DNA from: an uncultured delta proteobacterium
GTDB taxonomy: Bacteria > Desulfobacterota > RBG-13-43-22
Assembly: GCA_963802945.1 (NCBI GenBank)
Contig: CAWDKY010000053.1
Span: forward strand, 128,001 to 192,000
Direction: 5' to 3'
DNA length: 64,000 nt
A program made the position numbers and the translations under genes. Below are positions 1,844-42,820 of this stretch, piece after piece. Numbering within the stretch: position 1 is the first letter of the stretch; every line of letters starts with the position of its first letter. The notes under the pieces were generated by a model. It ran no database searches. It saw nothing but the letters and a program-made list of their open reading frames with translations, and was not told the DNA's origin.

Positions 1844-1909
1844 ACGGACCATCGGCCTTCCGGCCAAGTGAAGGCTGGTGTAAGAATAAAAATAAAATTG
1901 GAGGAAATT

Positions 1910-3349: not shown

Positions 3350-3385
3350 CCATGGTTCCGTCCACAAACAATAAAAGAGGTGATC

Positions 3386-3410
3386 TGGGGTGGTCCCCAA
3401 AAATTGGACA
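3386..3410 (+). mobile_element. Possible solo IS3-family terminal inverted repeat
   Basis: TGGGGTGGTCCCCAAAAATTGGACA resembles IS3-family ends (TG...CCCC.AAAA.TGGACA); no transposase nearby. Confidence 0.35.
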
Positions 3411-3719
3411 AGGTGATAAGCCCTGAGTTAGCCCAAAGGAAGCGGCGATGTCCAACCATTTCTCCCATATTTCCATCCGTACTCGTTAATTTTTCGGTTT
3501 ATCTGTTTAAAGCATTAGTAGGTGTACTCGAGGAATTCGCTAAAGTAAGACCATTTTCGAGAAAACTTGAGGGCTTCTTCCTGTAATGTTGTTTTTCTTA
3601 TTTTATAAATTTATGCAACCTTTCAATCAGAAATAATCAAAAAAGCTGAACTCAAAATTAATATGTGGTACAAGTATTTGGGACAGGTATGCTTCAATAC
3701 AAAATAGCAGGGTGGCGTA

Positions 3720-4109
3720 ATGAATAAACAATTACGAAGCATAATTGCGGTAATACTCACTTGCATTTGGGTGAATGCATCTGAGTTTTTTAGAAATGAG
3801 ATTCTTCTAAAAACATATTGGGTTGACCATTATCAATCACTCGGAAATGCTTTTCCCTCTGAACCGAAGAATGGAATGATATGGTTTGCATGGGGATTAT
3901 TGTTTGCCATAGCTATTTATTTAATCTCAAAAAAATTCAATTTAATACAAATGGCACTCATCAGTTGGCTTATGGCATTTGTTTTGATGTGGGTTGTTAC
4001 TTTGAATCTAAACGTACTCCCAATTGCTATTCTTATTTATGCTGTTCCACTGAGTCTGTTTGAAGCCTTTCTGGGTTCTTATATTTGTATAAAGATATCT
4101 CCAAATTAA
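3720..4109 (+). CDS. AT-rich small integral membrane protein (about 4 TM), probable former gene cassette
   Basis: 129 aa with four hydrophobic segments; AT-rich; followed by attC-like site. Confidence 0.7.
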   Translation: MNKQLRSIIAVILTCIWVNASEFFRNEILLKTYWVDHYQSLGNAFPSEPKNGMIWFAWGLLFAIAIYLISKKFNLIQMALISWLMAFVLMWVVTLNLNVLPIAILIYAVPLSLFEAFLGSYICIKISPN

Positions 4110-4115
4110 TTGAAC

Positions 4116-4173
4116 ACATAACCCACCAATCAACCGGACGACTTTCATTAAGCGGTTATCCGTGGCGTTTCAT
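4116..4173 (+). mobile_element. Degenerate attC-like site
   Basis: ACATAAC-CCACCAATCAACCGGACG...GCGGTTATCCGTGGC-GTTTCAT just after the stop codon; right core poor. Confidence 0.4.
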
Positions 4174-4286
4174 CTTTAAAATAATAATTTATCAAATTAA
4201 GACATTTCAAAGTCGTTTGTTTTCTTCCATTAATATAAAAAAGGAGGTTCTTATCAATAAAGAATACCTGTGACGAAAAATAATCC

Positions 4287-4334
4287 TTGACAAACAATAA
4301 ATGTGTGGATATATATATGCATAAGAACATATAT
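4287..4334 (+). promoter_or_regulatory. Sigma70 promoter of padR-like gene overlapped by a palindromic candidate operator
   Basis: TTGACA (4287) -17 bp- TATATA (4310); ATATATG-N8-CATATAT at 4313-4334. Confidence 0.55.
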
Positions 4335-4357
4335 TCACCATAACATAATGAGAAAAA

Positions 4358-4927
4358 ATGTCTTTACCGCACGCACTGCTCGGATTGCTGAGTTACAGAC
4401 CAACGACCGGATATGATTTGAAATTGGCTTTTGCCAGTTCAATCGGAATGTTCTGGGACGCTTCCTTGCCCCAAATTTACAGGACTTTAGGACAAATGGG
4501 AAAAAACGGCTGGTTGTCTTATCGTATCGAGCAACAAAACGGCAAACCAAACCGTAAAATCTATAGCCTTACCGCTTCAGGCAAAAAAGAATTAAATGAA
4601 TGGTTAAGTAAGCCGCTGGAATTTCCTAAGGTAAGAAAGAATGAGATGCTGATAAAAATATTCTTCGGCAACAAAATCAGCAAGAAAGATTTAATAAAAC
4701 ATTTCAAAGAATGGCGTGGCAGTGCAGCCTCATTGCAAAAAAAATTAGAAAAGGACGTCAAGCCGATTGTCGCTCACTATGGTGACGTAACAGGCGCAAA
4801 GAATGATATGTATTTCTGGCTTTTAACCGCTGATTATGGACGGCGGCACGCCAAAATGATTGTGGAATGGTGTGATTCCGCGTTGGATTTTCTAGAAAAA
4901 GGGGAAAAGATTAAAATTAATAGATAA
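4358..4927 (+). CDS. PadR-family transcriptional regulator with C-terminal dimerisation (AphA/Vir_act-like) domain
   Basis: MSLPHALLGLL..P.TGYDL, FW.AS..QIY..L, KPNRKIY.LT..G. Confidence 0.92.
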   Translation: MSLPHALLGLLSYRPTTGYDLKLAFASSIGMFWDASLPQIYRTLGQMGKNGWLSYRIEQQNGKPNRKIYSLTASGKKELNEWLSKPLEFPKVRKNEMLIKIFFGNKISKKDLIKHFKEWRGSAASLQKKLEKDVKPIVAHYGDVTGAKNDMYFWLLTADYGRRHAKMIVEWCDSALDFLEKGEKIKINR

Positions 4928-5061
4928 GAAAACAACTTGTGAATTTTAAAATTATCCGGGAGGAGTTATTTCATCATTTGGAGACTTTAGATTTAAAAAT
5001 ATTTTTGGAAGAAATAATATCTGTTCAATAATTGCATCACATAAATCATGAGGAGGATGAA

Positions 5062-6126
5062 ATGAAAGTATTGGCCCTTAATTCCAGTGCCAGAGTCGGG
5101 GATGTGAGCAAAACAGAAATTATGCTGGACTGTCTGGTCCATGGGATGCGTGAGGCCGGGGCCGAAGTAGAAGTCATTAACCTGCAAAAAAAGAAAATCA
5201 GATACTGCAGCGGATGTTTCACCTGCTGGACCAAAACTCCCGGTCTGTGCATTCACAAAGATGATATGACCAAGGAAATCTTTCCCAAATGGTTAGCCTG
5301 CGACCTGTGTGTGCTGGCTACCCCCCTTTTTCATTATACCATCAATGCCCTAATGAAAACCTTTATCGAAAGAACCCTTCCGGCCGCCTTGCCTTTTTTC
5401 GTGGAAAGAGACGGGGTCACAAGGCATCCTCGTCGGTACGAATTGCCTTTGGTGGCTGTAGTTTCCGTGGCCGGGTTTCCCGAGGAAAGTGTTTTCGATC
5501 AGCTCAAGCCTTATATAAACTTCTTATTCAGAGACCGATTGGTAGCTGAAATTTATAGAACCTCGGCGGAAATCCTTCGAGCCGACACCAAGAACGAAAA
5601 ACTAAGGGACATCCTTGCGGCCACAATCCAGGCGGGAAAAGAATTAGTTAAAACTGGAAAAATTTCTCCGGAGACCATGGAAAGGATCAAAAACCCCATA
5701 ACCGACTTCAAAAAAATGGCACCGATTGGAAATTGCGCCTGGCAAACCTGTATTGACGAGAGAGTTACCATGGGAGAATTTCAAAAACGGAATATGGTGC
5801 CCCGTCCCGATTCGATTGGAACATTCCTGGCTATCATGAAGATGGCTTTCAACCCCACAAAGGCTGGAGATGCCAAAGTGACCATGCAGTACAACTTCTC
5901 CGGCCAGGTGGAAGGCCGCTGTTATTTTTCCATTGAGAATGGAGAATTAAAGGCAGAGGAGGGGCAAATTGCCAACCCTGACTTGACTATTGAAACACCT
6001 TTTGAAGTTTGGATGGATATCCTTACCGGTAAAGCCGAAGGGGCTCAGATGCTGATGGACGGCAAATATTCAGTCTCCGGCCAAACAGACCTGCTTCTCA
6101 AAATGAACCAATTCTTCGGGGAATGA
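5062..6126 (+). CDS. Iron-sulfur flavoprotein/NAD(P)H-dependent FMN reductase fused to C-terminal SCP2 lipid-binding domain
   Basis: ATG 5062 after GAGGAGG; CSGCFTCW..TPG.C..KDDM, ATPLFHY; C-terminal FNP.KAG...QY.FSG...PDLTI SCP2 pattern. Confidence 0.85.
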   Translation: MKVLALNSSARVGDVSKTEIMLDCLVHGMREAGAEVEVINLQKKKIRYCSGCFTCWTKTPGLCIHKDDMTKEIFPKWLACDLCVLATPLFHYTINALMKTFIERTLPAALPFFVERDGVTRHPRRYELPLVAVVSVAGFPEESVFDQLKPYINFLFRDRLVAEIYRTSAEILRADTKNEKLRDILAATIQAGKELVKTGKISPETMERIKNPITDFKKMAPIGNCAWQTCIDERVTMGEFQKRNMVPRPDSIGTFLAIMKMAFNPTKAGDAKVTMQYNFSGQVEGRCYFSIENGELKAEEGQIANPDLTIETPFEVWMDILTGKAEGAQMLMDGKYSVSGQTDLLLKMNQFFGE

Positions 6127-6171
6127 ACTATGACGGCTTCTCAAAATGAGGCGTGCATTCCGGACCGCTGC

Positions 6172-6299
6172 CGGCTACAGTTGGCCGAACTGCTCAGGCC
6201 ATAAGCCACCTCGACTTTTCCAACGCTGAGTTCCATGACATGAAAATGCAGCCATCCCTGGAAAGAGCATTGAGGCATAAAGAGATATTAAAGGAATAA
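6172..6299 (+). pseudogene. Degenerate 3' fragment of a TPR-like protein (copy A)
   Basis: RLQLAELL / AISHLDFSNAEFHDMKMQPSLERALRHKEILKE*, homologous to 9390-9656. Confidence 0.7.
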
Positions 6300-6383
6300 G
6301 ATTATGGCCTTGCCTTTTTACGCACATTTCAATCGGAGCATTGCCTGGTTGGAACGCATCAAATCTTAATAAGGAGCAAGGAA

Positions 6384-7748
6384 ATGACAACTGCAGCGGA
6401 AGCATTAAGCGAATTCACCTATAATCTCAAGTACGAAGATCTTTCGAATGGCGTTGTTAAAAAAAGTAAGCAATTACTCCTGGACACTCTGGGCTGCGCG
6501 CTCGGCGGATACTTAAGCGAGCCAAGCCGTATTGTGCGAAGCATGGTCAAGGATCTGGGGGGCAGACCCGAAGCGACTGTTATCGGGAGCGGAGACAGGA
6601 CTTCCAGCCCGAACGCTGTTCTGGCAAATTGTGTCATGGTTCGGTATCTGGATTTTATGGATATTTACTTTAATAAGGATGGTTGTCATCCAAGTGAGAA
6701 CATTCCTACGGCTTTAGCCGTGGGAGAACGGACCCAAGCCCTTGGCAAGGACCTGTTAACGGCCATCGTGATTGGATTCGAAATACAGCAGCGGTTCGCC
6801 GACGCCATACCCTGTCATTTATTACAATGGCATCATGTGACCATTGCCGGATATGTTACACCTCTGATAGCCGGCAAGTTGCTCGGGTTGAACCAAGATC
6901 AATTAACCCATGCCGTCGGCATTTCTGGGAGTCATAATCACGCCCTTGCTGACTTACTGGGCGAATGGTGGCGAGGGACTGGCCAAATCAGTATGATGAA
7001 GGCTATTGGTTATGGATTCGGTTCCCAGAGCGGGATCATAGCTGCACTCCTGGCCCAGAAGGGCTTTACCGGGCCGAACACGATCATTGAGAGTTTTGGC
7101 CGGGTGGTGGCCAAGGAAGAGAACTTGGCCCCAATCATTAGCGGTGGGGATCGATTTAAAATTCTAGATACCAGTCTCAAGGCCTATCCCTCCGAGTACC
7201 TATCGCAAAGTTCCTTAGACGCCATGTTCGAGTTGATCAGGAAGCACAACATCCAAGCTGAGGACGTCGAAGCTATCAATATCAAAACCCACTCATACGT
7301 ATCCATCCTGACCCAGCTGTCATCCTACAAACCAGAAACACGGGAGTCTGCAGACCACAGCCTGCCTTACTGTCTAGCTGTGGGCCTGATCGAGGGCGAG
7401 CTTGGACCGGACCAGTTCAAACGAGAACAATGGAAGGACCCAAAGGTCCTTGACTTGATGTCTAGGATCAAGATCGAGATCGATAAGGAACTTAGCGCAC
7501 TCTATCCCCCGGCCAGACCGGTGATCCTGGAAATCAGAATTAAGAATGGAGAATGCTATAAAACCCGCGTAGATTATCCACGGGGCGATCCGCATAACCC
7601 GATGACGGACAAGGAAACCGAGGCCAAGTTTAAGAAACTGGCCGGGAATTTAATCCAGGAGAGTCAGATGCGGGAGATTATTGACCTTGTCAATCATATC
7701 GAAGAGATTTCCAACGTGTCGGAATTGATGGAGCATCTGGTTGTTTAA
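6384..7748 (+). CDS. MmgE/PrpD-family protein (2-methylcitrate dehydratase-like)
   Basis: LLDTLGCALG, VRYLDFMD...CHPSEN, RESADHSLPY, YPRGDP.NP. Confidence 0.88.
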   Translation: MTTAAEALSEFTYNLKYEDLSNGVVKKSKQLLLDTLGCALGGYLSEPSRIVRSMVKDLGGRPEATVIGSGDRTSSPNAVLANCVMVRYLDFMDIYFNKDGCHPSENIPTALAVGERTQALGKDLLTAIVIGFEIQQRFADAIPCHLLQWHHVTIAGYVTPLIAGKLLGLNQDQLTHAVGISGSHNHALADLLGEWWRGTGQISMMKAIGYGFGSQSGIIAALLAQKGFTGPNTIIESFGRVVAKEENLAPIISGGDRFKILDTSLKAYPSEYLSQSSLDAMFELIRKHNIQAEDVEAINIKTHSYVSILTQLSSYKPETRESADHSLPYCLAVGLIEGELGPDQFKREQWKDPKVLDLMSRIKIEIDKELSALYPPARPVILEIRIKNGECYKTRVDYPRGDPHNPMTDKETEAKFKKLAGNLIQESQMREIIDLVNHIEEISNVSELMEHLVV

Positions 7749-12016: not shown

Positions 12017-14683
<2,667 letters not shown>

Positions 14684-15361: not shown

Positions 15362-18013
15362 ATGGACCATTATAAACTCTTTATTGATGGGGAGTTTGTG
15401 GATGCGCAGGATGGCAGGAGTTTTGAATCGATCGATCCGGGCACTGAAATGCCAATCGCAACGGTCGCCCAGGCAGGGTTGGCCGATGCCGAAAAGGCTA
15501 TAGCTGCGGCACGCAAATCTTTCGACAGCGGGGTTTGGAGCGGCCTGACGACTGAAGCAAGAGCGGAAAAGATATACCATTTTGCCAATCAGGTTACGTT
15601 ACAGGGTATGCGCCTGATATTTACTGAATCTATGGATTCCGGGCAGCCGATTCGTCTGGCCATGGCAGCCGCTATAACCGGCCCTCCTCTGCTGAACAAC
15701 CTCGCTGCCTATGCTAAAAATAAATTTCCCTGGGAGGAAGAAATTCCTTATTCCGGGAACCCTTTTGCCCCAGGGCGTGATTTTATCCGCCGAGAACCGA
15801 TCGGTGTATGTGTTGGGATTATCCCCTGGAATTTTCCTCTGTACATGGCCTTCTGGAAGATCGCCCACGCCATCGTTATGGGAAACTCGATCGTCTTAAA
15901 ACCCGCTTCGGCCACACCCCTCAGCGTACTTATTTTGGCAGAAGCGGCCAAAGCGGCCGGTATTCCTAAAGGGGTTATCAACATTATTCCCGGACCGGGT
16001 GGAGAATTGGGTAAAATATTATGTACCCATCCCAGCGTGGATAAGATCGCCTTTACCGGCAGTACGGAGGTCGGCAGGGAAATCATGAAAATGGCTTCCG
16101 AAACGGTTAAAAAAGTAACCCTCGAACTGGGCGGCAAGTCGGCCAACATTATCCTTGATGATGCCGATTTGGATTTGGCTGCTAATGGTGCTGTTTTAGC
16201 AACGTTTTTGCATCAAGGGCAGATATGTGAATCCGGAACCAGAATCTTGGTTTCGGCTAAAATCTATGATGAATTCCTTGATAAGCTGAAAAAAAGAACC
16301 GAGGAGCTTAGAGTAGGTTATCAAGTCCTTCCGACATCTCATCTGGGACCGCTGGTAAATAAAGCCCAATTAGCGACCACGGAGAAATATGTCAAGCTGG
16401 GCCTGGAAGAAGGGGCGGAGCTGGTTACCGGTGGGAAGCGTGTCGAGGTTGAAGGCATAAAAGGAGGGTTCTATTACGCTCCGACCCTGTTCTCCAAGGT
16501 GAACAATAAAATGCGCATTGCCCAGGAAGAGATTTTCGGCCCCGTAGCCTGCGTTATAAAAGTTAACAGCGACGAAGAAGCCGTCGAAGTAGCCAATGAC
16601 TCTGTCTATGGTCTTGCGGGGGGTATTTTTTCTACCAACCACACTCGGGCCCAGCGCCTGGTACGATCCATACGCACTGGAACCATGTGGATCAATAACT
16701 ACCACGTCTTTGGCGACTTCTGTCCCTTCGGCGGATATAAACAGTCCGGTTTTGGACGGGAATTTGGTGAAAGCGGTTTAGCCGAATATACACAAATTAA
16801 GAGGGTGCATGTGGCTTATTTCCCGGACAATATCAGAATCGGGCTCCTTTCCGATATCCGGAATCCATCATCGTTTCAATACAATTGCCCGACAAACGTT
16901 ATATCCGGCTATGGAAGTCTCTCGGCCATCTATAAGGAAATTGTCAATCTGGGCGTTAAAAGGGCCCTGGTTTTAACGGATCCCGGTGTGAGAAAAGCCG
17001 GACTCACACAACTGGTCCAGGATGCGCTGGTGGAATTTTGCGTAGGCGTCTTCGATGATATTCCCCAGGATACCGATCTGGATACGGTTGACGCCGCGGT
17101 GGCCATGGCCCGAGAACTCAGGGCGGATTGTATTGTTAGTGTCGGCGGCGGGAGCGTTATTGATACTGGCAAAGCGGTATGTGTGACTTTAAAGAACGGC
17201 GGCCGGGCAATGAACTATATTGCCTTCTCCCGGCTCCAGGAACCACAGACGCCCCACATTGTTATTCCCACCACCTCAGGAACAGGAAGTGAAGTGACCA
17301 GCGTGGCGGTCATAAAAAGCAAGGATGTCGGCCGTAAGGTCTATATAGCTGATGTACGGATCGTGCCCAATACGGCTATCCTTGATCCGAGATTCACCGT
17401 GAGTCTGCCTCCGGGATTAACTGCGACAACGGCTATGGATGCTATGACGCATGCCGTTGAAGCCATGACCAGTATTAGATCCAATCATATTTGTGACGGC
17501 CAGGCTATGCAGGCGATCAGGCTTATTAAGGAAAATCTACCGATCGCTGTTACTAATGGCAAGAATAAAACTGCCCGTCAGAACATGCAGATCGCCGCCA
17601 CTATGGCCGGATGGGCCTTTACCGTCGCCCAGGTAGGTTTGGCCCATGCTATGGCCCATACCTTAGGGGCTTTAAACAATATTCCCCATGGAGCGGCCTG
17701 CGGAATTGTCCTTCCGAAGGTCATGCGGTATAATGCCGAATTTGCTGCCGATAAGCTGGCTATGGTAGCTCAGGCTTTGGGGATCATGACCCCCGATATG
17801 GATAAAAAAACAGCGGCTATGGCCGCCGCCGCCGACATAGAATCCTTGATGAAAAAAGTAGGGCATCCCCTGAGACTTCGGGATATGGGCGTGCTGGAAA
17901 ATCAACTCGATATGTGCGCCTTACACGCTATGGGCGATATGGCCTCGATGTTTAATGCCCGGCCGGTAGGCGGGCCGCAGGAAATTATAGACCTCTATAA
18001 AGAAGCTTATTGA
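15362..18013 (+). CDS. Fusion of non-acylating aldehyde dehydrogenase and iron-containing alcohol dehydrogenase (copy 2)
   Basis: Same motifs as copy 1 (GQICESG, LELGGKS, DAMTHAVE, GLAHAMAH); colinear paralog. Confidence 0.92.
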   Translation: MDHYKLFIDGEFVDAQDGRSFESIDPGTEMPIATVAQAGLADAEKAIAAARKSFDSGVWSGLTTEARAEKIYHFANQVTLQGMRLIFTESMDSGQPIRLAMAAAITGPPLLNNLAAYAKNKFPWEEEIPYSGNPFAPGRDFIRREPIGVCVGIIPWNFPLYMAFWKIAHAIVMGNSIVLKPASATPLSVLILAEAAKAAGIPKGVINIIPGPGGELGKILCTHPSVDKIAFTGSTEVGREIMKMASETVKKVTLELGGKSANIILDDADLDLAANGAVLATFLHQGQICESGTRILVSAKIYDEFLDKLKKRTEELRVGYQVLPTSHLGPLVNKAQLATTEKYVKLGLEEGAELVTGGKRVEVEGIKGGFYYAPTLFSKVNNKMRIAQEEIFGPVACVIKVNSDEEAVEVANDSVYGLAGGIFSTNHTRAQRLVRSIRTGTMWINNYHVFGDFCPFGGYKQSGFGREFGESGLAEYTQIKRVHVAYFPDNIRIGLLSDIRNPSSFQYNCPTNVISGYGSLSAIYKEIVNLGVKRALVLTDPGVRKAGLTQLVQDALVEFCVGVFDDIPQDTDLDTVDAAVAMARELRADCIVSVGGGSVIDTGKAVCVTLKNGGRAMNYIAFSRLQEPQTPHIVIPTTSGTGSEVTSVAVIKSKDVGRKVYIADVRIVPNTAILDPRFTVSLPPGLTATTAMDAMTHAVEAMTSIRSNHICDGQAMQAIRLIKENLPIAVTNGKNKTARQNMQIAATMAGWAFTVAQVGLAHAMAHTLGALNNIPHGAACGIVLPKVMRYNAEFAADKLAMVAQALGIMTPDMDKKTAAMAAAADIESLMKKVGHPLRLRDMGVLENQLDMCALHAMGDMASMFNARPVGGPQEIIDLYKEAY

Positions 18014-25034: not shown

Positions 25035-25126
25035 CTCTAATGCGGCGTTGACCCGTGGCCCACAGCTTGCGGGGCCTTTAGACCCAGGCAAGCAAGTGAC
25101 ATCGGTGTCCAATGGCCTGGTTGGCG
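25035..25126 (-). mobile_element. Degenerate attC-like site upstream of the hydrolase cassette
   Basis: Minus strand CGCCAAC-CAGGCCATTGGACACCG ... CGGGTCAACGCCGC-ATTAGAG; extra bases on the left arm. Confidence 0.45.
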
Positions 25127-25568
25127 AACGCCTGCGGCGGAGCCGGCCGGGACATGGAACCGATAGGGGCAACGCCCAATTGGCGACGCCGCAGGCGGCG
25201 CCAACAAGTTATCCTAAAGTTTTTCTGTACAACACTACAATTTAAAATCTAAATTGGGGAAGGCAACCCTGATCATTTTTCTGTTTGTGATAACTTATGG
25301 TTTACCCAACCCTTCAAATGCTTTGTAACCTATTATAAATGATAAATATTCTCTTGCCAAATTATTTTTATTGCCAAAATTATTGATAATGCAATCAAGA
25401 AACCGGGGCTTCTTGGCAAGCGGCATTATTCAGCCAAAACCCGCGGAAAATAAATAATGGTTGACATTTTATAAGAACAGCATAAAAATTAAATATTATT
25501 TAATCATAATTGAGTTATGGCTTTGCGATAAAAACAACCCTTAACAAGATTTCTATGGGAGGACAGTC

Positions 25569-28052
25569 ATGAGTTTAGCCGAACGAACAATAGGTCCAAA
25601 GGTTTCTCCGCCACCTTCGCGGGTGACCAAGGAGATGAGGAAAAGTATTGTTTACCAAAACAAGAGCAGTAGAGGCTCGGGAAGGATCGAAGCCGCCAAA
25701 GGGAATGTGACCCGGGTTAAGGAAGAGGGGCGCAATCCTTATCGTGATGAGGTTAAATTGTGCATTGAACGGGCGCGGTTGATTACCGAAGGGTATCAAG
25801 CCTCAGAAGGAGAGCCCATGGTCCTCCGGCGGGCCAAGGCCATGGCCCACTTTCTGGACAATCGAACCCTCTACATCTTACCTAACGAACGTATCGTCGG
25901 AAATGTCTCCAGTGAACCTTGCTCCATGATCACCTTTCCTGAAAAATGGAGCAGTTGGCTGGACAAGGCCATCGACACCGAGTACAGCCAATTAGTTACC
26001 GATGAAAAACGGGAGGAACTCCACCGGATCCATAAATACTGGAAAGGGAAATCGGTTCACGGCATGGAGCGCAATCTCTTGCCCAAGGACATCCTCTACT
26101 ACTGGTTTTATCCCAACCAGGGTGTCTTCTTGTGGCGCCATGGCGGCCATGTGGGTTCGCCGAATTACACCAGAATTTTCCAAACCGGCTTGAAGGGGAT
26201 CATCGCCGACGCCAAAAACAAGCTGGATGAAATCAAATCCGATCCGGAACTCTATTTGCATACCCGGGAATTTCTCAAGAAAAAAGCCTTTTATGAGGCG
26301 GTGATTATTTCTTCCGAAGCGGTGATTCGTCAGGGCAAAAGGTTTTCAGAGCTTGCCAGGCAAGAGGCGGCCAAGGCCACGGATCCCAAGAGAAAGGCGG
26401 AGCTGGAGGAAATGGCCGAGGTTTGCGCCTGGGTGCCGGAAAATCAACCCCGTACCCTTCATGAGGCCTTGCAGTTCTATTGGTTTATCAATCTGGTGGT
26501 CCGTGTGCTCGACATTCAGACCTCCGGTAATGGCGACCGGGTGGACCAGATCTTTTATCCCTTTTACAAAAAGGATAAGGAAGATGGCCTGTTGACTTAC
26601 GAGCAGGCCCAGGAACTGGTGGAGCACCTGCTGCTTAAATTCAATGAAGAAGGGGCTTTGATTCCCCCCTCTCACCCCTCGGCCGGGCCTTTGATCACCC
26701 GCGTGGTAACCATAGGAGGGGTGGATACCGAAGGTGTTGACGCCACCAATGAAATGACCTATATCATCATGGATGCCAAAGACGAGGTGGGTTTCAATCA
26801 ACCGGCCCTGGCCGTCAGGCTCCATCCGCAAACACCCCAAAGTTTGTATCGAAAAATCATCTCCTCATTGCTTAAACAACCCGGTGTTTATTCCTTTTTT
26901 AATGACAATATGATGATCCCCTTCCTGATGAACCTCGGCCTCCCCCTGGAAGATGCCCGGGATTACGGGACCGACGGCTGTATGCGATGGATCGTACCCG
27001 GCAAGGCCATGTGTCAAAGGGCCTTGGGAGGCACCTTTGTCCTTCCCAAGTGCTTTGAATACGCCTTGTACCAGGGAGTGGATAAATTCAGCAATAAACA
27101 GGTCGGGGCCAAAACCACGGACCCCTTGACCTGGACCTCGGTGGATGATGCCATGCAGGCCTACCTGGAGCAGGTAAAATTCTTTTTACACAAACTGGTG
27201 ACCATCTATAATCTCGTCGATGCCTTGGAAGAAGAATGGTTGCCCCAGCCCTTTCTCTCGGCTGTGGTGGACGGCTGTCTGGAAGCCGGGAAAGACTGTC
27301 GCGAGTTCAAATATTATCATAATACCATCATTCAACCAGTCGGCCAGGTCACGATCATCAATTCCCTGGCGGCCATTAAGAAGCTGGTGTTTGACGAGAA
27401 AAAGGTTAAGATGGCCGACCTTCTTGAAGCCTTGAAAAACAATTGGGAAGGCAGGGAAGATCTGCGTCAGCAATTTATTAATGACGCACCCAAATGGGGC
27501 AATGATGAAGATTATGTGGACCTCATCGGCCGGGAATTCTACAAGAAGACCAACCAGGCCTTTAAAAGCTTTAAAAATATCTGGGGCTGGCCCTTCAATG
27601 AAGACGGGACCGGGGCTTCTTCCTATTACGATTACAGCGGGATGACCGGGGCCACACCCGACGGCCGGAAGGATCTGGATTTGTTTAATGACGGAACCGT
27701 ATCTCCGGTCATCGGCACGGATAAGAAAGGTCCTCTGGCTACCATGAAATCCATCAGCAAGTTAGACCACGCCGGAACTTTCACCCACCTGTTCAACCAA
27801 AAATTCACTCCTCAAGAGCTGAAGAAGAACAACGGGGCCAATTTCATCTCCCTGCTGAAGACCTTTGTTGATCTTGGCATTCACCACACCCAATTTAATG
27901 TTATCGACCGGGAGACGTTGCTCGATGCTCAGATGCATCCGGATCAATATTCCGATCTGGTGGTCAGGACTGCCGGGCTGGCGGCTTATTTTGTGGATAT
28001 GACCAAAGGAGTGCAGGACCAGATCATTGAGAGAACAGAATTAAGTCTTTAA
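25569..28052 (+). CDS. Glycyl radical enzyme of uncharacterised class
   Basis: ERAR..TE.Y...EGEP.VLRRAKA; Cys loop DARDYGTDGC471MRW; TPDGR; HTQFNV; Gly loop DLVVRTAG803LAAYF. Confidence 0.92.
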   Translation: MSLAERTIGPKVSPPPSRVTKEMRKSIVYQNKSSRGSGRIEAAKGNVTRVKEEGRNPYRDEVKLCIERARLITEGYQASEGEPMVLRRAKAMAHFLDNRTLYILPNERIVGNVSSEPCSMITFPEKWSSWLDKAIDTEYSQLVTDEKREELHRIHKYWKGKSVHGMERNLLPKDILYYWFYPNQGVFLWRHGGHVGSPNYTRIFQTGLKGIIADAKNKLDEIKSDPELYLHTREFLKKKAFYEAVIISSEAVIRQGKRFSELARQEAAKATDPKRKAELEEMAEVCAWVPENQPRTLHEALQFYWFINLVVRVLDIQTSGNGDRVDQIFYPFYKKDKEDGLLTYEQAQELVEHLLLKFNEEGALIPPSHPSAGPLITRVVTIGGVDTEGVDATNEMTYIIMDAKDEVGFNQPALAVRLHPQTPQSLYRKIISSLLKQPGVYSFFNDNMMIPFLMNLGLPLEDARDYGTDGCMRWIVPGKAMCQRALGGTFVLPKCFEYALYQGVDKFSNKQVGAKTTDPLTWTSVDDAMQAYLEQVKFFLHKLVTIYNLVDALEEEWLPQPFLSAVVDGCLEAGKDCREFKYYHNTIIQPVGQVTIINSLAAIKKLVFDEKKVKMADLLEALKNNWEGREDLRQQFINDAPKWGNDEDYVDLIGREFYKKTNQAFKSFKNIWGWPFNEDGTGASSYYDYSGMTGATPDGRKDLDLFNDGTVSPVIGTDKKGPLATMKSISKLDHAGTFTHLFNQKFTPQELKKNNGANFISLLKTFVDLGIHHTQFNVIDRETLLDAQMHPDQYSDLVVRTAGLAAYFVDMTKGVQDQIIERTELSL

Positions 28053-28063
28053 GTCGAGAATAA

Positions 28064-28117
28064 TTCACCCCCACCCCTGCCCTCCCCCCTCGGAGGGGGA
28101 GGGTGCGGAAGGGGGAA
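28064..28117. repeat. GC-rich palindromic REP-like element
   Basis: CCCTCCCCCTC-GGAGGGGGAGGG stem with flanking CCCCC/GGGGG. Confidence 0.55.
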
Positions 28118-28205
28118 TTTTAAAACTCCGTGGTTCCCTCCTTAAACAATCATTTTGAGTTTAATAAAGCATTCCGTTCTTCATGTTAAACAGCAAGGAG
28201 ATGCA

Positions 28206-29006
28206 ATGGAATTCGATAAAATGTTTTTAAAGGAAGAAGAAGGTATTGCCACCTTGACCTTGAACAATCCGGACAAGCTCAATGCCATGTCCACCGAGAT
28301 GTGGAATGATTTTCGGACGATCATCGACCACATCCAGGGGAATCTTGAAATTAAAGTACTGGTGATCACCGGGTCCGGCCGAGGATTTTGTTCAGGATCA
28401 GATGTAGGAGCCAGATTGGCGGCCAATATCGAAGGGCGCGGGCCGAAAAAGACCCAGGCCGACCTGCTGGAAGGAACCGGTTACGCAGCTAAGGTGATCA
28501 GGGATCTGGAAATCCCCATCATTGCGGCGATTAACGGTGTGGCTGCTGGTGCGGGCCTTTCCATGGCCTTGCTTAGTGATATCCGCATTGCCTCGGAAAC
28601 CGCCCGTTTTGGGGCCATTTGGGTCCGGGTCGGTTTGATCGGCGACCTGGGAGCCACTTTACTGCTGCCGCAACTTATAGGACCGGATAAGGCCTTTGAG
28701 ATGCTGACCACCGGGATCATGATTGATGCCCGGGAGGCGGAACGGATCGGACTAGTTACCCGTGTGGTTCCTTCCGAGGCCTTGTTGACCTCCGCCTATG
28801 AACTGGCCGGGAAACTGGCCAAAGGGCCGGCCTTATCGATCAAGTTAATGAAAAAGGCTATCTATAAAGGGCTTCGGCACAACGACCTTCAAGCCCAACT
28901 GGATTTTGAAAGCTTTGCCCAGGGGGTATGCCGTCAATCCGAAGATCATCGCGAAGGCGTCAGGGCCTTTATGGAAAAAAGAGTAGCCCAGTTCAAAGGG
29001 CTGTAA
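28206..29006 (+). CDS. Enoyl-CoA hydratase/isomerase family (PaaG-like, single Asp)
   Basis: FCSGSD, AINGVAAGAG, DIRIASE.ARFG, GLIGD; both canonical Glu absent. Confidence 0.88.
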   Translation: MEFDKMFLKEEEGIATLTLNNPDKLNAMSTEMWNDFRTIIDHIQGNLEIKVLVITGSGRGFCSGSDVGARLAANIEGRGPKKTQADLLEGTGYAAKVIRDLEIPIIAAINGVAAGAGLSMALLSDIRIASETARFGAIWVRVGLIGDLGATLLLPQLIGPDKAFEMLTTGIMIDAREAERIGLVTRVVPSEALLTSAYELAGKLAKGPALSIKLMKKAIYKGLRHNDLQAQLDFESFAQGVCRQSEDHREGVRAFMEKRVAQFKGL

Positions 29007-29050
29007 GACATTTATCCTATTAAGGACAAAAAAGAAGGTTATCATTTGGG

Positions 29051-29240
29051 GTCATTCCGGTGAAGAGACTGTGTCGTAATTATATTTTTGTCATTCCGTG
29101 CAAGCGAAGCGCGACACGGAATCCAGTATTTTCATTAAGTTCTGGATGACGGCTTTGATGGCGCTGTCCGCTATTACGACACAGTCTCGAAGGCCGGAAT
29201 CCAGAGGTTTTCCTGGACTTCGGCTTCCGCCGGAGTGACG
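29051..29240. repeat. REP doublet (GTCATTCCGG...CCGGAATCCAG...CTGGA...CCGGAGTGAC) interrupted by a MITE
   Basis: Matches the intact REP at 38904-38930. Confidence 0.8.
29065..29188. mobile_element. 124-bp MITE with perfect 16-bp TIRs and 3-bp target duplication
   Basis: GAA[GAGACTGTGTCGTAAT ... ATTACGACACAGTCTC]GAA. Confidence 0.85.
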
Positions 29241-29294
29241 TGTTTGGGACCTTTGATAAACCTGTGAACTGAATTGGTTAGATCTAAAAAATTG

Positions 29295-30224
29295 ATGGAC
29301 AACAATAAACCGGAGCTTCGGTCGGACCGGGGATCGATTTTTCTTATTCAGAGTTTCAGCACTAATGATGGTCCGGGAATAAGGACCACGGTCTTTACCA
29401 AAGGGTGTCCCCTTAAGTGCCTGTGGTGCCACAATCCTGAATCCGCCAACAGCTTCCCGGAACTGATGATCCATGATGACCGCTGTATCGGCTGCCTCAA
29501 ATGTCTTGAAGTCTGTCCGAAAAAGGCCATTACCTTTCATCCGGAAAAAGGCAGGAGGATCATTCGGAATCGTTGTAATCGGTGCCTGGATTGCGTTGCC
29601 GTTTGCCCGGCCAAATCTTTGACTGCGGTGGGTGAAATCATGACCGTTGAGCAAGTGATGGCCGAGATCAAAAAAGACGAGCTTTTTATCCACCGCTCCG
29701 ACGGCGGCGTGACTATTTCCGGCGGAGAACCTTTGGCCCAAGCCCCATTTGTCCTGGAACTTTTGAAGGCCTGCCGAGAGCGGGGGTTACATACCGCTTT
29801 GGACACCAGCGGTTATGCACCCTGGTCCACGTTGGAAGAGATACTTAATTATGTCGACCTGGTTTTATTTGATATCAAACATATGGATCCAAAGGTCCAT
29901 ACACAGGTCACCGGGGTCAGCAATGCCTTGCCTCTTTCCAACTTGCGGCGCATCCCGCGGAATATCCCCATCTGGCTGAGGCTGCCCCTCATCCCTGGCT
30001 ATAATGATTCCTTAGAGAATCTGGATAAAGTGGGGGCCTTAAGCCGGGAAATAGCTGCGGAAAAAATTTCTCTTCTGCCCTTTAATCGCTATGGGGACGG
30101 AAAATATCTGAATTTGGGCCGGAAGATACCACTGCCGGGGATCGAAATGTTTAGCCGGGGAAAGATTGAGGAAATCAAAGTGGTTCTGGAAAAGTCGGGG
30201 GTACCGGTAACCATTGGAGAATAG
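29295..30224 (+). CDS. Glycyl-radical enzyme activating enzyme (radical SAM with 2x[4Fe-4S] ferredoxin insert)
   Basis: DGPGIRTTVF.KGCPLKCLWCHNPE; CIGCLKCLEVC and CNRCLDCVAVC; GGVTISGGEP; start uncertain. Confidence 0.93.
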   Translation: MDNNKPELRSDRGSIFLIQSFSTNDGPGIRTTVFTKGCPLKCLWCHNPESANSFPELMIHDDRCIGCLKCLEVCPKKAITFHPEKGRRIIRNRCNRCLDCVAVCPAKSLTAVGEIMTVEQVMAEIKKDELFIHRSDGGVTISGGEPLAQAPFVLELLKACRERGLHTALDTSGYAPWSTLEEILNYVDLVLFDIKHMDPKVHTQVTGVSNALPLSNLRRIPRNIPIWLRLPLIPGYNDSLENLDKVGALSREIAAEKISLLPFNRYGDGKYLNLGRKIPLPGIEMFSRGKIEEIKVVLEKSGVPVTIGE

Positions 30225-30232
30225 AAAAACAT

Positions 30233-30310
30233 AGACTGAAGACCGAAGACTAAAGGCTGAAAGAACTGCGAAGAAAACTTTTTTCATTTTTTCCTTCAGC
30301 CTTCAGCCTT
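30233..30310. repeat. Heptamer-unit hairpin (GACTGAA/GGCTGAA ... TTCAGCC)
   Basis: Tandem 7-mers on the left arm, complementary 7-mers on the right arm. Confidence 0.6.
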
Positions 30311-30336
30311 AACACCTAAAAAACGGAGGTAAGATA

Positions 30337-31131
30337 ATGGCAACAGACCAAGTTGTTCTCGTAGAAACCAAAAACAGGATTTGCGTATTGACCTTTAATC
30401 AACCGGATAAACTGAACGCCATGAACGATGTCATGGCCGTGGCCTTCAGTTCCGCCATTGACCAAATCAAGAAGAATTCGGAACCCAAAGTGTTGATCCT
30501 TACCGGTGCCGGCCGGTCTTTCAGCGCCGGCGGCAACCTGGATAAGATGAGGGGCAATGTGGGCTCAAACCCGGCCAAACGCAAAAAAGAGTCTTTCGCC
30601 TTTTATAATTCTTTTCTGCGTCTGATGGATCTGGAAATTCCGACCATCGCTGCCATCAACGGCCATGCCATCGGCGCCGGGGCCTGCGTCAGCCTGGCCT
30701 GCGACATGAGAATAGCGGCCACCAACAGCAAGATCGGTTTCACCTTCGCCAAGATCGGGCTTCATCCCGGAATGGGCGCGGAATACTTCCTTACCAGATT
30801 GATCGGCCGGGCCAGGACCTTTGAACTTTTGATGACCGGGGATATCCTCTCCGCCGAAGAGGCCTTTCGTATTGGGCTGGTCAATCATCTCAGCCCGCCG
30901 GAAAAATTGATGGATCATGCCCTCGAACTGGCTGGAAAAATCGCCGCCATGCCGGTTTTACCCATCAGGATGCTTAAGGAATCCATCGACGCCGCCACCA
31001 GAAACACCCTGGCTGAAACCTTGCACCGGGAAGCGACTTATCAGGCCTTATGTTATATGACCACGGACATTATCGAAGGAATCGATTCGACCAAAGAAAA
31101 AAGGCCAGCAAAATTCAAAGATGAATATTAA
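30337..31131 (+). CDS. Enoyl-CoA hydratase/isomerase family lacking catalytic acidic residues
   Basis: FSAGGN, AINGHAIGAG, ACDMRIA, GFTF..IGLHPGMG. Confidence 0.88.
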   Translation: MATDQVVLVETKNRICVLTFNQPDKLNAMNDVMAVAFSSAIDQIKKNSEPKVLILTGAGRSFSAGGNLDKMRGNVGSNPAKRKKESFAFYNSFLRLMDLEIPTIAAINGHAIGAGACVSLACDMRIAATNSKIGFTFAKIGLHPGMGAEYFLTRLIGRARTFELLMTGDILSAEEAFRIGLVNHLSPPEKLMDHALELAGKIAAMPVLPIRMLKESIDAATRNTLAETLHREATYQALCYMTTDIIEGIDSTKEKRPAKFKDEY

Positions 31132-33688: not shown

Positions 33689-34950
33689 ATGAATATTCAA
33701 GCCTTAAAGGGTTTTAAAGACATCCTTCCCGGTGAAGCGGAGAAATGGGTCTTCATGGAAGAAACGGCCCGTGGGATCTTCCGGACCTTCGGCTTTTCTG
33801 AAATCAGAACCCCAATCCTGGAAAAAACGGACCTCTTTGTCCGTTCCATCGGTTCTTATACCGATATTGTCGAAAAAGAAATGTACACCATCATTGACCG
33901 AAGCGGGGATTCGATCACTTTACGCCCTGAGGCTACGGCCTCGGTATTGCGGGCCTTTATCGAGCACAATCTCCAAGGGCAACAGCCGATCCACAAACTT
34001 TTTTCCATCGGCCCCATGTTCCGCCATGAACGGCCCCAAAAAGGACGCTTGCGCCAGTTCCATCAGATCAATGCCGAATATATAGGAACCGACAGCCCGT
34101 TATGCCGATGCGGAGATGATTTATCTTTTGATGCAAATTCTGGATCACCTGGGGCTTCAGGAAACCCGCCTGCGAATCAATTCCCTGGGCTGCCCGGTTT
34201 GCCGGCCTTCTTTCACCTCGGCCCTGCAAGGAGTTTCTGGAAGACAACAAATCGGTTTTATGCCCGGACTGTCAACGCCGGACGGTGACCAATCCCTTAC
34301 GGGTATTTGACTGCAAGGTGGAACGCTGTCAGGAAGTTTTAGTAGCACGCTCCGACCATCACGGCTTTTAATTGCCCGGAATGTCAAACCCATTTTGCTC
34401 AAGTGCAGGAACTCATCTATCGGCTTCACATTCCATCCCATCTGGATCCCAGACTGGTCCGAGGACTGGATTATTACTGCCGGACTACCTTTGAGGTCAG
34501 TGCCGGCCATCTTGGGGCCCAGGATGCGGTGGCCGGCGGCGGGCGTTATGACGGCCTGCATTCGGCTGTTGGGGGGGCCTGATCTGCCGGCTATCGGTTT
34601 TGCCATTGGTCTGGAAAGAGCGGCGCTGCTTTTATCTCCTCAGGAAGAATGGCTAAGCCGGCCTTTCGTTTTTATTATCCCTTTAGGAGCAGAGGCCCGA
34701 GATAAGGCTTTTGATCTATTAACGACCCTTATTAAAAAAGAAATACCGGCCGTTATGGATTATGAAGATAAAAGTTTGAAAAGCCGGCTTAGAACGGGCC
34801 GATAAGGTCAAAAGTCATTATGCCGCCATCTTGGGAACTGAGGAACTGAATAAGGATCAGATCCTGATCCGCAACTTGAACACTCAGAGTCAGGAAGAAA
34901 TTCCGATTCCCCAATTTTTAGATTATTTTTTAGAAAGATATCTCAAATAA
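33689..34950 (+). CDS. hisS: Histidyl-tRNA synthetase (several frameshifts, probably sequencing errors)
   Basis: KGFKDILP, DIVEKEMY, LRPEATAS, FRHERPQKGRLRQFHQ, GFAIGLER across frames. Confidence 0.93.
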
Positions 34951-39412: not shown

Positions 39413-40967
39413 ATGACCACTGCAGACCGGATTAAGGAATTAATCGCCCGAAACGCCCAGGCTGAAATGGGCGGCGGGCAGGATAAAATCGACATTCAGC
39501 ATCAAAAAGGTAAGCTGACGGCCCGGGAACGGATCGATTATCTTCTGGATCAAGGCACCTTTGCGGAAATGGATAAGTTTGTGGTCCATCGCTGTTATGA
39601 TTTCGGTATGGAAAAACAAAAATTTTTCGGCGACGGGGTGGTAACCGGGTACGGGCGGATCAATGGTCGTCTGGTTTATGTTTTTTCCCAGGACTTTACG
39701 GTCTTCGGAGGGAGCCTAAGCGCTGCTTTTGGAGAAAAGATCTGCAAGATTATGGACATGGCCATAAGGAACGGGGCCCCGGTCATCGGACTGAACGATT
39801 CCGGAGGGGCACGCATCCAGGAAGGGGTCGGAAGCCTTGGGGCTTACGGTGAAATCTTCAGAAGAAATGTCAGAAGCTCCGGAGTGATCCCCCAGATATC
39901 GGCCATCATGGGACCATGCGCCGGCGGTGCGGTTTATTCCCCGGCCATCACTGATTTTATCATTATGGTCGAAAAGACCAGCCACATGTTCATCACCGGT
40001 CCCCAGGTCATTAAGGCCAACACCCATGAAGATGTCGATCCGGAAGCCCTGGGTGGAGCGGTTAGGCATAACAACACCAGCGGAGTGGCTCATTTCTCGG
40101 CCAAAGACGACAAGAAAGCCTTGGATTTGATCAAAGAACTTTTATCCTTCCTTCCGCAAAATTGCAATGAATCCCCTCCCCAAACTGAACCCAATGATGA
40201 TCCCAACCGTATCGATATGGCCCTTCAGGACCATCATTCCCGACAATCCGCGCCTCCCTTATGATATGAAAAAGATCATCCTCTCTATTGTGGATGATCA
40301 TCACTTTTTCGAGGTCCAGAAATTATATGCCCAGAATATGATTATCGGCTTTGCCCGGATGAACGGGATGCCGGTCGGGATTGTCGCCAACCAGCCCCGG
40401 GCCCTGGCCGGATGTCTGGACATCAATGCCTCGGATAAATGCGCCCGGTTTGTCCGCTTTTGCGATTGTTTTAATATTCCGATCATCACTCTGGTCGATG
40501 TCCCCGGGTTTCTGCCCGGGGTGGCCCAAGAGTATGGCGGGATTATCCGCCACGGGGCCAAGGTCATTTATGCTTATTGTGACGCCTCTGTGCCCAAGGT
40601 GACGGTCATCACCCGCAAGGCTTATGGTGGGGCTTATGATGTAATGGGCAGCAAACACCACGGAGGAGACATCAATTTTGCCTATCCCACAGCCGAGATC
40701 GCCGTTATGGGTCCGGAGGGGGCGGTCCCCATCGTCTTCCGCAATCAACTGAACAATTCGGCCGATCCGGAAAAAACGCGTCAGGAATTGATTGATGATT
40801 ATCGGCAGACCTTTGCCAGCCCTTATAAAGCGGCCGAATTAGGGTATATAGACGAAATTATCCTTCCCGAATATACCCGCCCCAAATTGATCCGTGCCCT
40901 GGAATCCCTGAAAACCAAGATGGATGTGCATCGCCTTCCCCGTAGGCATGGGAATATACCTCTTTAA
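39413..40967 (+). CDS. pccB: Propionyl-CoA carboxylase beta / methylmalonyl-CoA carboxyltransferase subunit (frameshift near 40230)
   Basis: [52 protein letters not shown] split over two ORFs. Confidence 0.9.
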
Positions 40968-41063: not shown

Positions 41064-41142
41064 TTTTTCGTAGCCGTAAAATCCCAAGCTCTTACAATAA
41101 GCGTTCCCATTTTATTTCTCTATTATATTAATGAGGTCTCTT

Positions 41143-42820
41143 ATGTTTGATTCACAAAAAATTAAAGAGCTGAAGATAAGGCAATCAGCCTGGCAGGAAA
41201 AAACCGAAGCCGGGGTTTACAAATCGCCGGAAAGGAAAAAGACCTTCACGACCCTTTCAGAAATTCCCCTTCAGCGCACCTATACTCCGGCGGATATTGA
41301 GGATTTGGACTATGAAAAGGATCTCTCCTTTCCGGGAGAGTATCCTTTTACCCGGGGGGTCCAGCCCACCATGTATCGCGGCCGTTTCTGGACCATGCGC
41401 CAATACGCCGGTTTTGCCGATGCCGAAGAATCCAATCGCCGTTATAAATTCCTATTGGAGCAGGGCCAGACCGGACTCTCCGTGGCCTTTGATCTGCCCA
41501 CCCAGATCGGCTATGACTCCGATCACCCGCTGGCCCAGGGGGAAGTGGGAAAAGTCGGGGTAGCCATCGATTCCCTTCTGGACATGGAAACCTTGTTTAA
41601 CGGCATCCCGTTGGATAAAGTCAGCACCTCCATGACCATCAACGCCCCGGCCGCCATCCTGCTGGCCATGTACATCGGAGTGGCGGAGAAACAAGGGATT
41701 TCCTCCAAAGATTTGAACGGAACGATCCAAAACGACATCCTGAAGGAATACACCTCCCGGGGGACTTATATTTTTCCACCCCAGCCTTCTTTGCGCATCA
41801 TCACCAATATCTTTGAATATTGTGCCCAAGAAGTCCCCAAATGGAACACCATCAGCATCAGCGGCTATCATATCCGGGAGGCCGGTTCCACGGCCGTTCA
41901 GGAAGTGGCCTTCACCCTGGCCAACGGTCTGGCCTATGTGGAAGCCGCTCAAAAAGCCGGGTTGGACGTGGATCGTCATCGGCCCCCGCTTGTCTTTTTT
42001 CTTTAACGCCCATCTGGATTTCTTGGAAGAGATCGCCAAATACCGGGCTGCCCGCCGGCTCTGGGCCCGCCTGATGAAAGAACGTTTCGGGGCCAAGGAT
42101 CCCCGGACCATGACCCTGCGTTTTCATACCCAGACCGCCGGCTGTTCCTTGACCGCCCAGCAGCCGAAGAACAATATCGTCCGGGTGGCCTTTCAGGCCA
42201 TGTCCGCCGTCTTGGGAGGGACCCAATCCCTGCACACCAATTCCATGGACGAAGCCCTGGCCCTGCCTTCCGAGGAAGCGGTCCAAATCGCCTTACGCAC
42301 CCAGCAATTAATCGCTTATGAAACCGGCGTCACCGATACCATCGATCCCCTGGCCGGTTCCTTTTATATCGAACATCTGACCACCACTATTGAAAAAAAG
42401 GCCATGGACTATATCCGACAGATCGATAAGCTGGGCGGTGCAGCGGCGGCGATTGAAAAAGGATTCATCCAACGGGAAATCCAGGAGAGTGCTTTTCGCT
42501 ATCAGAAGGCCGTGGAGACAGGCGATCGGGTGGTAGTCGGGATCAACAAGTTCCAGACCCAGGAACCGCCGCCTTCAGGACTGCTTAAGGTTGATCCAGC
42601 GATACAGAAGCAACAAATTCAAAAGATTATTCAACTCAAACAATCCCGGGACAATATCAAGGTGCTTTCCTGTTTGGCCCAACTTAAAAAAACCGCCGAA
42701 GTACAGGATAATCTGATGCCCCCGATCCTCGAAGCGGTTCGGGCCTATGCGACCCTAGGGGAAATCTGCGACACCTTGCGGTCGGTTTTCGGAGAATATA
42801 CGGCCGTCTCATTCTTATAG
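41143..42820 (+). CDS. Methylmalonyl-CoA mutase, substrate-binding subunit (frameshift near 41980)
   Basis: [62 protein letters not shown]. Confidence 0.92.

Follow-up and report, generated by a model that had tools for sequence, protein, structure and literature searches.

A large, conserved family of glycyl-radical enzymes with a CMRW Cys loop branches beside fumarate-adding enzymes

The DNA analysed here, a 64,000-nucleotide window of contig CAWDKY010000053.1 (assembly GCA_963802945.1), comes from an uncultured delta proteobacterium and carries a gene for a glycyl-radical enzyme (GRE) that we refer to by its Cys loop, CMRW. The CMRW family is large and unstudied, comes from sediment bacteria, and branches beside the enzymes that start oxygen-free oil degradation. 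Four genes lie on the forward (+) strand in the order GRE, crotonase 1, activase, and crotonase 2. The GRE gene (25569..28052) encodes 827 aa with the domains PF02901 (564 bits) and PF01228 (90 bits). It is followed by crotonase 1 (28206..29006; 266 aa from ATG 28206, PF00378), a radical SAM activase (29295..30224; 309 aa from ATG 29295, or 316 from TTG 29274), and the PaaG-like crotonase 2 (30337..31131; 264 aa). On the same strand, a ribosome-binding site read from sequence (GGAGG, 25558..25562) recurs in 7/7 aligned upstream regions of close relatives. A sigma-70-like promoter (25461..25489; TTGACA, 17 nt, AAAAAT) is a consensus match only, at 10 of 12 positions; its TTGAC, ∼105 nt 5′ of the GRE gene, is kept in all seven of these relatives amid diverging flanks.

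By every test run, the protein belongs to the PFL-like (pyruvate formate-lyase-like) GRE superfamily, with PF02901 and PF01228, the Cys, the Gly, and an activase. The gene order and the motifs GC471MRW, QR484ALGGTFVLPK, and RTAG803LAAYF had been pointed out in a sequence-only reading of this DNA; open reading frames (ORFs), domains, and residue positions bear this out, in an intact reading frame. We assessed conservation in the best 120 of 2129 matches (57 to 96% identity), drawn from 8000 scored candidates. The Cys loop C471-M472-R473-W474 (26979..26990, +) is kept in 120, 119, 120, and 120 of these homologues, respectively. Also on the + strand are R484-A-L-G487-G488 (27018..27032), a candidate carboxylate-binding Arg with a Gly pair, in which R484 is invariant (120/120); D679-G680-T681 on strand beta8 (27603..27611), with D679 and T681 each in 119/120; and Gly803, the radical-storage glycine (27975..27977), in 119/120, the sole exception being a truncated protein. 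H191 and Q589 are invariant too (120/120), and a basic N-terminal motif is conserved (K32 in 113, R35 in 112, and R39 in 109 of 120). Because C471, R473, W474, and R484 occur in all 120 homologues, CMRW and R484 do not reflect decay, chance, or error. The Gly-loop variant that had been singled out is not supported as a distinguishing feature: we dropped it as a family marker since position 801 (V 71, T 22, I 16, and Q 9 of 120) and position 804 (L 69, F 32, and Y 18 of 120) vary.

Relatives with named records come from Thermodesulfobacteriota/Deltaproteobacteria and Chloroflexota/Dehalococcoidales. The family profile matched 25/301 genomes of the class of a Dehalococcoidales genome (E≤1e-250, related Cys-loop variants included), and a close orthologue is present in 7/21 genomes of the host's own family. 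One locus (L155:6935-16846, also L076) carries four tandem CMRW paralogues that are 52 to 70% identical; they keep CMRW, the Arg, and the Asp-Gly and differ in the 362-380 loop. No activase is found among the genes adjacent to this locus.

Position among glycyl-radical enzymes

The CMRW protein scored under the cut-off of all 12 NCBIfam models that it matched, including HypD (529 bits; cut-off, 1100), HpsG (518; 1000), CutC (447; 1050), PFL2-3 (567; 678), IAD (364; 1100), HPAD (293; 1150), and TIGR01255 for PFL (98; 994). Its identity to named GRE references is 23 to 37%, and none of the seven GRE classes fits it as they are described in a 2026 review (PMC13450708). Our full-text literature search returned no match to GCMRW or CMRW and, in mostly non-subscription papers, no description of the family, members of which may stand unnamed in supplementary GRE trees. 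Sediment GREs have been given Ass/Bss-like roles by similarity, and the CMRW motif is not described in the accessible portions of those reports (PMC8163825, PMC6776118). Within the literature searched, the CMRW active site and clade are therefore without a description, and the earlier suggestion of an undescribed GRE family holds. Database names on CMRW homologues include formate C-acetyltransferase and choline TMA-lyase; best-hit annotation of such genes as PFL, assA, or bssA is unsafe whichever reaction they catalyze.

For the phylogeny, we combined the 150 best matches among 50%-identity representatives with genome matches and named references; the main tree (PMSF model, 75 rows, 779 columns) carries SH-aLRT support only. 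The Bss/Ass references were checked against PDB sequences (L018, 1571 bits to TutD; L199, 1485 bits to MasD), and one sequence in a wrong frame (L202) was left out. The CMRW family falls inside a 24-row clade (SH-aLRT, 99) mostly marked by the beta8 Asp-Gly, which is present in 109/110 full-length GREs of our locus set and is a mark of this wider clade rather than of the CMRW family; its other Cys loops include CVYL, CMYP, and CMVP. Together with a 14-row Bss/Ass clade (95), outside which the CMRW family lies, and 13 rows resembling X-succinate synthases (XSS), the Asp-Gly clade forms a single 51-row branch (SH-aLRT, 100) that shuts out glycerol dehydratase (GD), PD, HypD, CutC, YbiW, PflD, and PFL. 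An approximately unbiased (AU) test (41 rows, LG+G4) rejected a grouping of the Asp-Gly clade with the eliminases (p=0.003). The tree, a check proposed in the earlier reading, thus places the CMRW family with fumarate-adding enzymes and inside no characterized clade, with the caveats that groups were named after earlier trees were known and that PFL is a long branch.

Two other GREs bear on the wider Asp-Gly clade. The host has a second GRE at C24:72844-75240 (L002, L186), a member of that clade with the Cys loop GCVYI and 41% identity, which has its own activase and adjoins a split SCPx-type thiolase; its subfamily is common in our phylum sample, and we found no description of it in the literature searched. 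Another GRE with its own activase (L241:3935-6349), 45% identical to one member of the wider clade, lies in a gene island upstream of an assA gene. Six further uncharacterized GREs (P0138, P0139, P0164, P0187, P0215, and L210) are closer to Bss/Ass than the CMRW family is; in several of them the Arg site reads KR or RR and the Q707 site is occupied by Gln, and we regard all six as candidate hydroalkylases.

The closest known systems compared were the XSS, represented by BSS alpha (TutD; PDB 4pkc/5bwe) and MASS alpha (MasD; PDB 9o8u). The CMRW protein resembles them in its side of the GRE tree, in a single Cys followed by Met, in a tentatively equivalent Arg with a Gly pair where beta6 begins, in the absence of the Glu of the CxE motif, in a ferredoxin-type activase, and in CoA-ester genes close by. 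It differs in the Cys loop (CMRW rather than CM[SA]P, with C-M in common and Arg for Ser), in having D679-G680, a motif that XSS lack, in its separate clade, and in that no beta, gamma, or delta subunits were found.

Neighbouring genes

The activase scored 330 bits against TIGR02494 (cut-off, 174) and has CxxxCxxC and two ferredoxin motifs (CxxCxxCxxxC); against TIGR04003, a model of BssD only, it reached 240 bits (cut-off, 496). Both crotonases lack the two glutamates of hydratases, which we take to be catalytic, as we do the PaaG-type Asp. Crotonase 1 keeps this Asp (Asp147, the Asp of GLxxDxG). Crotonase 2 has Gly145 at that site (GLHPGMG) and no acidic residue at the Glu sites either. PaaG-type isomerases (6sl9/3hrx/4fzw) show the same loss of the Glu pair and share the Asp with crotonase 1 but not with crotonase 2. 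The best PDB matches of crotonase 2 are PaaG-type entries (6sl9, 6sla, 6slb, 3hrx, and 4fzw_C), and both crotonases lie under the PaaG model cut-off (203 and 187 bits versus 345). Crotonase 1 falls in a 13-row clade made up entirely of GRE neighbours from Desulfobacterota and Chloroflexota (SH-aLRT, 96), within a 20-row group (97) that also holds three ass-island crotonases, two host paralogues, and two further rows; crotonase 2 falls in a clade of 5 GRE-neighbour rows (96). The crotonase link that the sequence-only reading had asked to be checked is therefore conserved across two phyla.

At 129 loci, many of them on short contigs, the recurrent neighbours were the activase (52), crotonases (35), acyl-CoA dehydrogenases (25), AMP ligases (15), carboxyltransferases (15), amidohydrolases (14), SCPx-type thiolases (12), and CaiB transferases (8). 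We considered as non-redundant the 27 loci with 4 kb of flank on both sides and under 90% identity. A CoA-ester enzyme lay within ≤4 kb at 22/27 of these, compared to 293/1288 genes of the host genome, a rough control in that the families were picked post hoc from these same neighbours and the background is one genome. TRAP transporter genes occur at 2 loci (L075, L092). Microcompartment genes and alcohol dehydrogenases were absent from the annotated recurrent neighbour clusters, and no microcompartment family was detected among the 18 window ORFs scanned, in keeping with what had been noted for the adjacent genes.

Carboxyltransferases occur as pairs at several loci and form two GRE-specific clades with complementary half-motifs. 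Such tandem pairs are found at L066, L075, L078, L079, L081, L086, L098, and L099, one member keeping the C-terminal Gly-Gly motif and its partner the N-terminal motif; no biotin carboxylase or carrier gene was found among their annotated neighbours, and the pair is likely a heteromeric decarboxylase.

Small subunits were likewise not detected, as the earlier reading had stated for the adjacent genes. There is no small Cys-rich ORF within 500 bp of the GRE gene at this locus, and a tblastn search of the whole genome with 32 small Cys-rich control ORFs from Bss/Ass loci gave no match. A Cys-motif ORF (40 to 135 aa, ≤500 bp, same strand) accompanied 14/19 Bss/Ass loci (7/26 control loci were skipped for short flank) versus 2/57 CMRW loci, and both of the latter ORFs resemble no known subunit. 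Five Bss/Ass control loci also lack a Cys-motif ORF, so absence nearby is no proof.

In ass islands, a carboxyl transferase and enoyl-CoA hydratases are accompanied by PrpD and by a B12 mutase that comes with ArgK (PMC13685792). One CMRW locus (L059) has a single carboxyltransferase orthologous to the ass-island enzyme and an adjacent mutase that groups with ass-type mutases; next to another (L080) lies a gene homologous (52%) to a small gene of an ass cluster. We had considered the paired carboxyltransferases as ass-island orthologues and ruled this out once the host PccB halves were added to the tree, after which only the L059 gene qualified. The host genome carries an ass-island-type mutase module (C32:11735-21371, L251) whose proteins are 55 to 74% identical to ass-island ones, and no AssA/BssA was found among its 4 full GREs. 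Together with C26:23830-30187 (L252), this makes two B12 mutase modules in the host whose genes are related to those of ass islands; they comprise mutase, crotonase, and CaiB genes, with PrpD and MeaB at C32. In the host family, an ass-type mutase is present in 7/7 CMRW carriers versus 1/14 non-carriers. We rejected this co-occurrence as evidence, since kinship accounts for it: an aspS tree, in which rows G336, G705, and G711 carry no information because they were wrongly extracted, leaves no more than 2 independent contrasts within the genus (p=1). We give the mutase link little weight.

Proposed reaction and alternatives

Two fumarate contacts recur in both BSS and MASS, namely the oxyanion hole of the Cys loop and a single Arg (R508 and R492, respectively); the remaining contacts differ between the two enzymes (PMC12358834). 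Profile alignment to BSS (hhalign; numbered as L018 plus 3) placed M472 at M494, R473 at S495, and G487/G488 at G512/G513. It also reproduced the match of R484 to BssA R508 that had been made by eye, at a posterior of 0.57 only, and R484 aligned with the AssA Arg (the MASS R492 site) at 0.41. In the eliminase profile alignment, R473 falls on the CxE Glu (0.99). The PFL-strand Arg lies five columns past the R484 column. Mean conservation was 0.93 at nine BSS fumarate-side positions, eight of them at 0.92 or more, and 0.76 at nine hydrocarbon-side positions versus a whole-protein background of 0.77; these small, author-chosen sets were drawn in part from PMC12358834, PMC12583861, PMC13298812, and PMC4848970. 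Since three BSS pocket residues (E189, Y197, and L492) map to Gly in the CMRW protein, the alignment suggests a larger second substrate.

We tentatively propose, at a probability of about 0.45, that the CMRW protein is a single-subunit radical hydroalkylase that would add a C-H substrate across the double bond of fumarate or of a comparable unsaturated dicarboxylate, with the chemistry and both substrates read from genes, residues, conservation, tree position, and neighbours. This reading draws on the branch that the Asp-Gly clade shares with Bss/Ass and the rejection of the eliminases by the AU test, on the retained C-M and the alignment of R484 with the Arg of BSS and MASS, and on the higher conservation of fumarate-side than of hydrocarbon-side positions. 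The tandem paralogues, which keep CMRW, the Arg, and the Asp-Gly yet differ in the 362-380 loop, point the same way, as do the CoA-ester enzymes adjoining most of the non-redundant loci, the grouping of crotonase 1 with ass-island crotonases, the ass-type genes near L059 and L080, and the mutase module in a host without AssA/BssA. The protein most plausibly works like an X-succinate synthase, yet it is not a member of that group, from which its clade, its Cys-loop motif, and the failure to find small subunits set it apart.

As in other GREs, the adjacent activase would put the radical on Gly803, from which it would pass to Cys471. The acceptor may be held by the Cys-loop backbone (M472), R484, G487/G488, Q589, and T681, and R473 could serve as a second carboxylate clamp that replaces the Ser/Trp contacts of BSS, perhaps oriented by D679. 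The Cys471 thiyl radical would then abstract H from the second substrate, in a pocket predicted to be widened by Gly in place of Glu189, Tyr197, and Leu492 of BSS and to vary between paralogues. Enzymes encoded nearby would turn the resulting substituted succinate into its CoA ester and degrade it, putatively the isomerase-type crotonases here and, in relatives, acyl-CoA dehydrogenases, carboxyltransferases, CoA transferases, and ligases.

Several observations weigh against the hydroalkylase proposal. Identity is higher to GD/PD (35 to 37%) than to Bss/Ass (30 to 33%), and raw similarity puts eliminases on top (GD, 625 bits; HypD, 578) of MasD (522) and BssA (514). The alignment of R484 is uncertain at the posteriors given above, with a spacing of C+13 rather than the C+15 of XSS. 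BSS W613, N615, and Q707 correspond to I587, Q589, and T681, and Gln at 589 is also the GD residue. BSS and MASS need their small subunits for solubility and turnover (PMC13450708), which counts against the proposal because none was found here. HPAD, IAD, PAD, and AAD are missing from the tree; a search for decarboxylase references gave 0/171 and 0/161 genomes, with the controls silent too. The paired carboxyltransferases cluster apart from the ass enzyme in a clade of their own, and the mutase link is absent in Dehalococcoidia (4/27 carriers versus 5/43 non-carriers at 600 bits or more, with non-carriers G427-G449 assumed to be match-free). The choice of residue sets and the rough neighbour control count on the same side.

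According to the 2026 review, whole GRE clades are without experimental validation, and the existence of benzylic or allylic succinate synthases with other subunit numbers is not known (PMC13450708). The CMRW family offers a concrete test case, as a conserved single-gene relative of the succinate synthases with its activase alongside. Addition of a C-H substrate to fumarate, if true, would extend the known ways in which Desulfobacterota and Dehalococcoidia activate carbon anaerobically and provide a less complex scaffold for biocatalysts that form C-C bonds by radical chemistry; any other reaction would be new GRE chemistry.

It is doubtful, though conceivable, that CMRW represents a new GRE class of single-subunit enzymes that form C-C bonds or rearrange carbon skeletons on a CoA thioester or a non-fumarate acceptor. 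It would then be one branch of a large, unstudied Asp-Gly clade that is widespread in sulfate reducers, syntrophs, and Dehalococcoidia and opens recalcitrant sediment carbon. A rival reading, which we consider unlikely, has the GRE act directly on a CoA thioester, with an acyl- or enoyl-CoA undergoing radical rearrangement, isomerization, or C-C bond formation at a point between the steps of the neighbouring ligase, dehydrogenase, crotonase, and carboxyltransferase. Nearly all recurrent neighbours use CoA esters, crotonase 1 and the complementary carboxyltransferase pair are specific to GRE loci, and the basic N-terminal motif and the Gly at several mapped pocket positions are in line with such a substrate, with PFL as a precedent for CoA use by a GRE (PMC13450708). 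However, PFL requires a second Cys, and the CMRW protein has G470-C471 instead of the adjacent Cys-Cys pair; CoA-ester neighbours are equally expected after fumarate addition, and conservation within the pocket is highest at positions that match the fumarate side of BSS.

Equally unlikely is that the enzyme takes an imported organic acid and decarboxylates it or cleaves a C-C bond in it by radical chemistry, in which case R473 and R484 would bind carboxylates and D679 would donate a proton. Among the decarboxylases compared (HPAD, IAD, PAD, and AAD [7e7l]), all of which act on carboxylates, AAD and PAD also lack the Cys-loop Glu, and AAD has no small subunit. The Cys loop of AAD, GCVLH, is unlike CMRW. 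The earlier motif list, which was right in setting CMRW outside the known classes, was incomplete in this respect; because AAD has GCVLH, a missing CxE does not by itself exclude a decarboxylase. Gln484 and an essential Trp495 are described for PAD and an essential Arg226 for IAD (PMC13450708), and the TRAP transporter genes at two loci would suit import. Against this, the protein is far under the IAD and HPAD cut-offs, the AAD structure (498 bits in a profile search) ranks under MasD and BssA, a decarboxylated product would need no CoA-ester neighbours, and a tree built without decarboxylases puts the family on the XSS side.

More improbable still is 1,2-elimination or isomerization, with D679 standing in for the Cys-loop Glu. 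The CMRW protein shares with glycerol dehydratase (1r8w), PD, HypD, CutC, IslA/IseG, YbiW, and PflD a single subunit, a similar activase, a G-C loop with PGK, and its top raw similarity (31 to 37% identity), the best scores being to GD, HypD, and IseG; D679 is near-invariant and falls where an HpsG/IslA-type reference (P0195) has its strand Arg. Yet the CxE Glu, described for the eliminases and isomerases that the review covers (PMC13450708), is Arg in 120/120 homologues, all equivalog cut-offs are missed, the AU test rejects the grouping, and the annotated recurrent neighbours include neither microcompartment genes nor alcohol dehydrogenases. That the GRE is decayed or catalytically inactive, or that its motifs stem from sequencing errors, is very improbable given the open frame, the invariant motifs, the conserved promoter-like site and ribosome-binding site, and the cognate activase at 52/129 loci (many on short contigs), even though several split housekeeping genes in the window indicate that the assembly may carry indels.

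Other features of the window

Between crotonase 1 and the activase lies a dispersed, MITE-like repeat (29051..29240, no strand) with 16-nt perfect inverted arms (29065-29080/29173-29188); it gave 43 blastn pieces genome-wide, self included, and is no component of the GRE system. A second dispersed repeat family occurs at 25038-25370 (24 blastn pieces in the genome, self included). A terminator scan gave 16 sites, compared with 8.9 (sd 3.5) in shuffled sequence, and none of the sites helps to locate the ends of operons.

The three split housekeeping genes (33689-34805, 39413-40967, and 41131-42820) are each represented by two overlapping ORFs, which suggests assembly indel errors or pseudogenes. 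Their products are, in this order, presumably HisRS, a PccB-type carboxyltransferase, and a methylmalonyl-CoA mutase. Two tandem fusions of aldehyde dehydrogenase and Fe-alcohol dehydrogenase lie at 12017-14683 and 15362-18013, and the top scores of their aldehyde dehydrogenase part are to NAD-dependent (BADH-like) models, not the AdhE model. At 980-7748, an ICL/PEP-mutase family gene, two MmgE/PrpD genes, PadR, and a flavodoxin-SCP2 fusion form a possible methylcitrate-like cluster.

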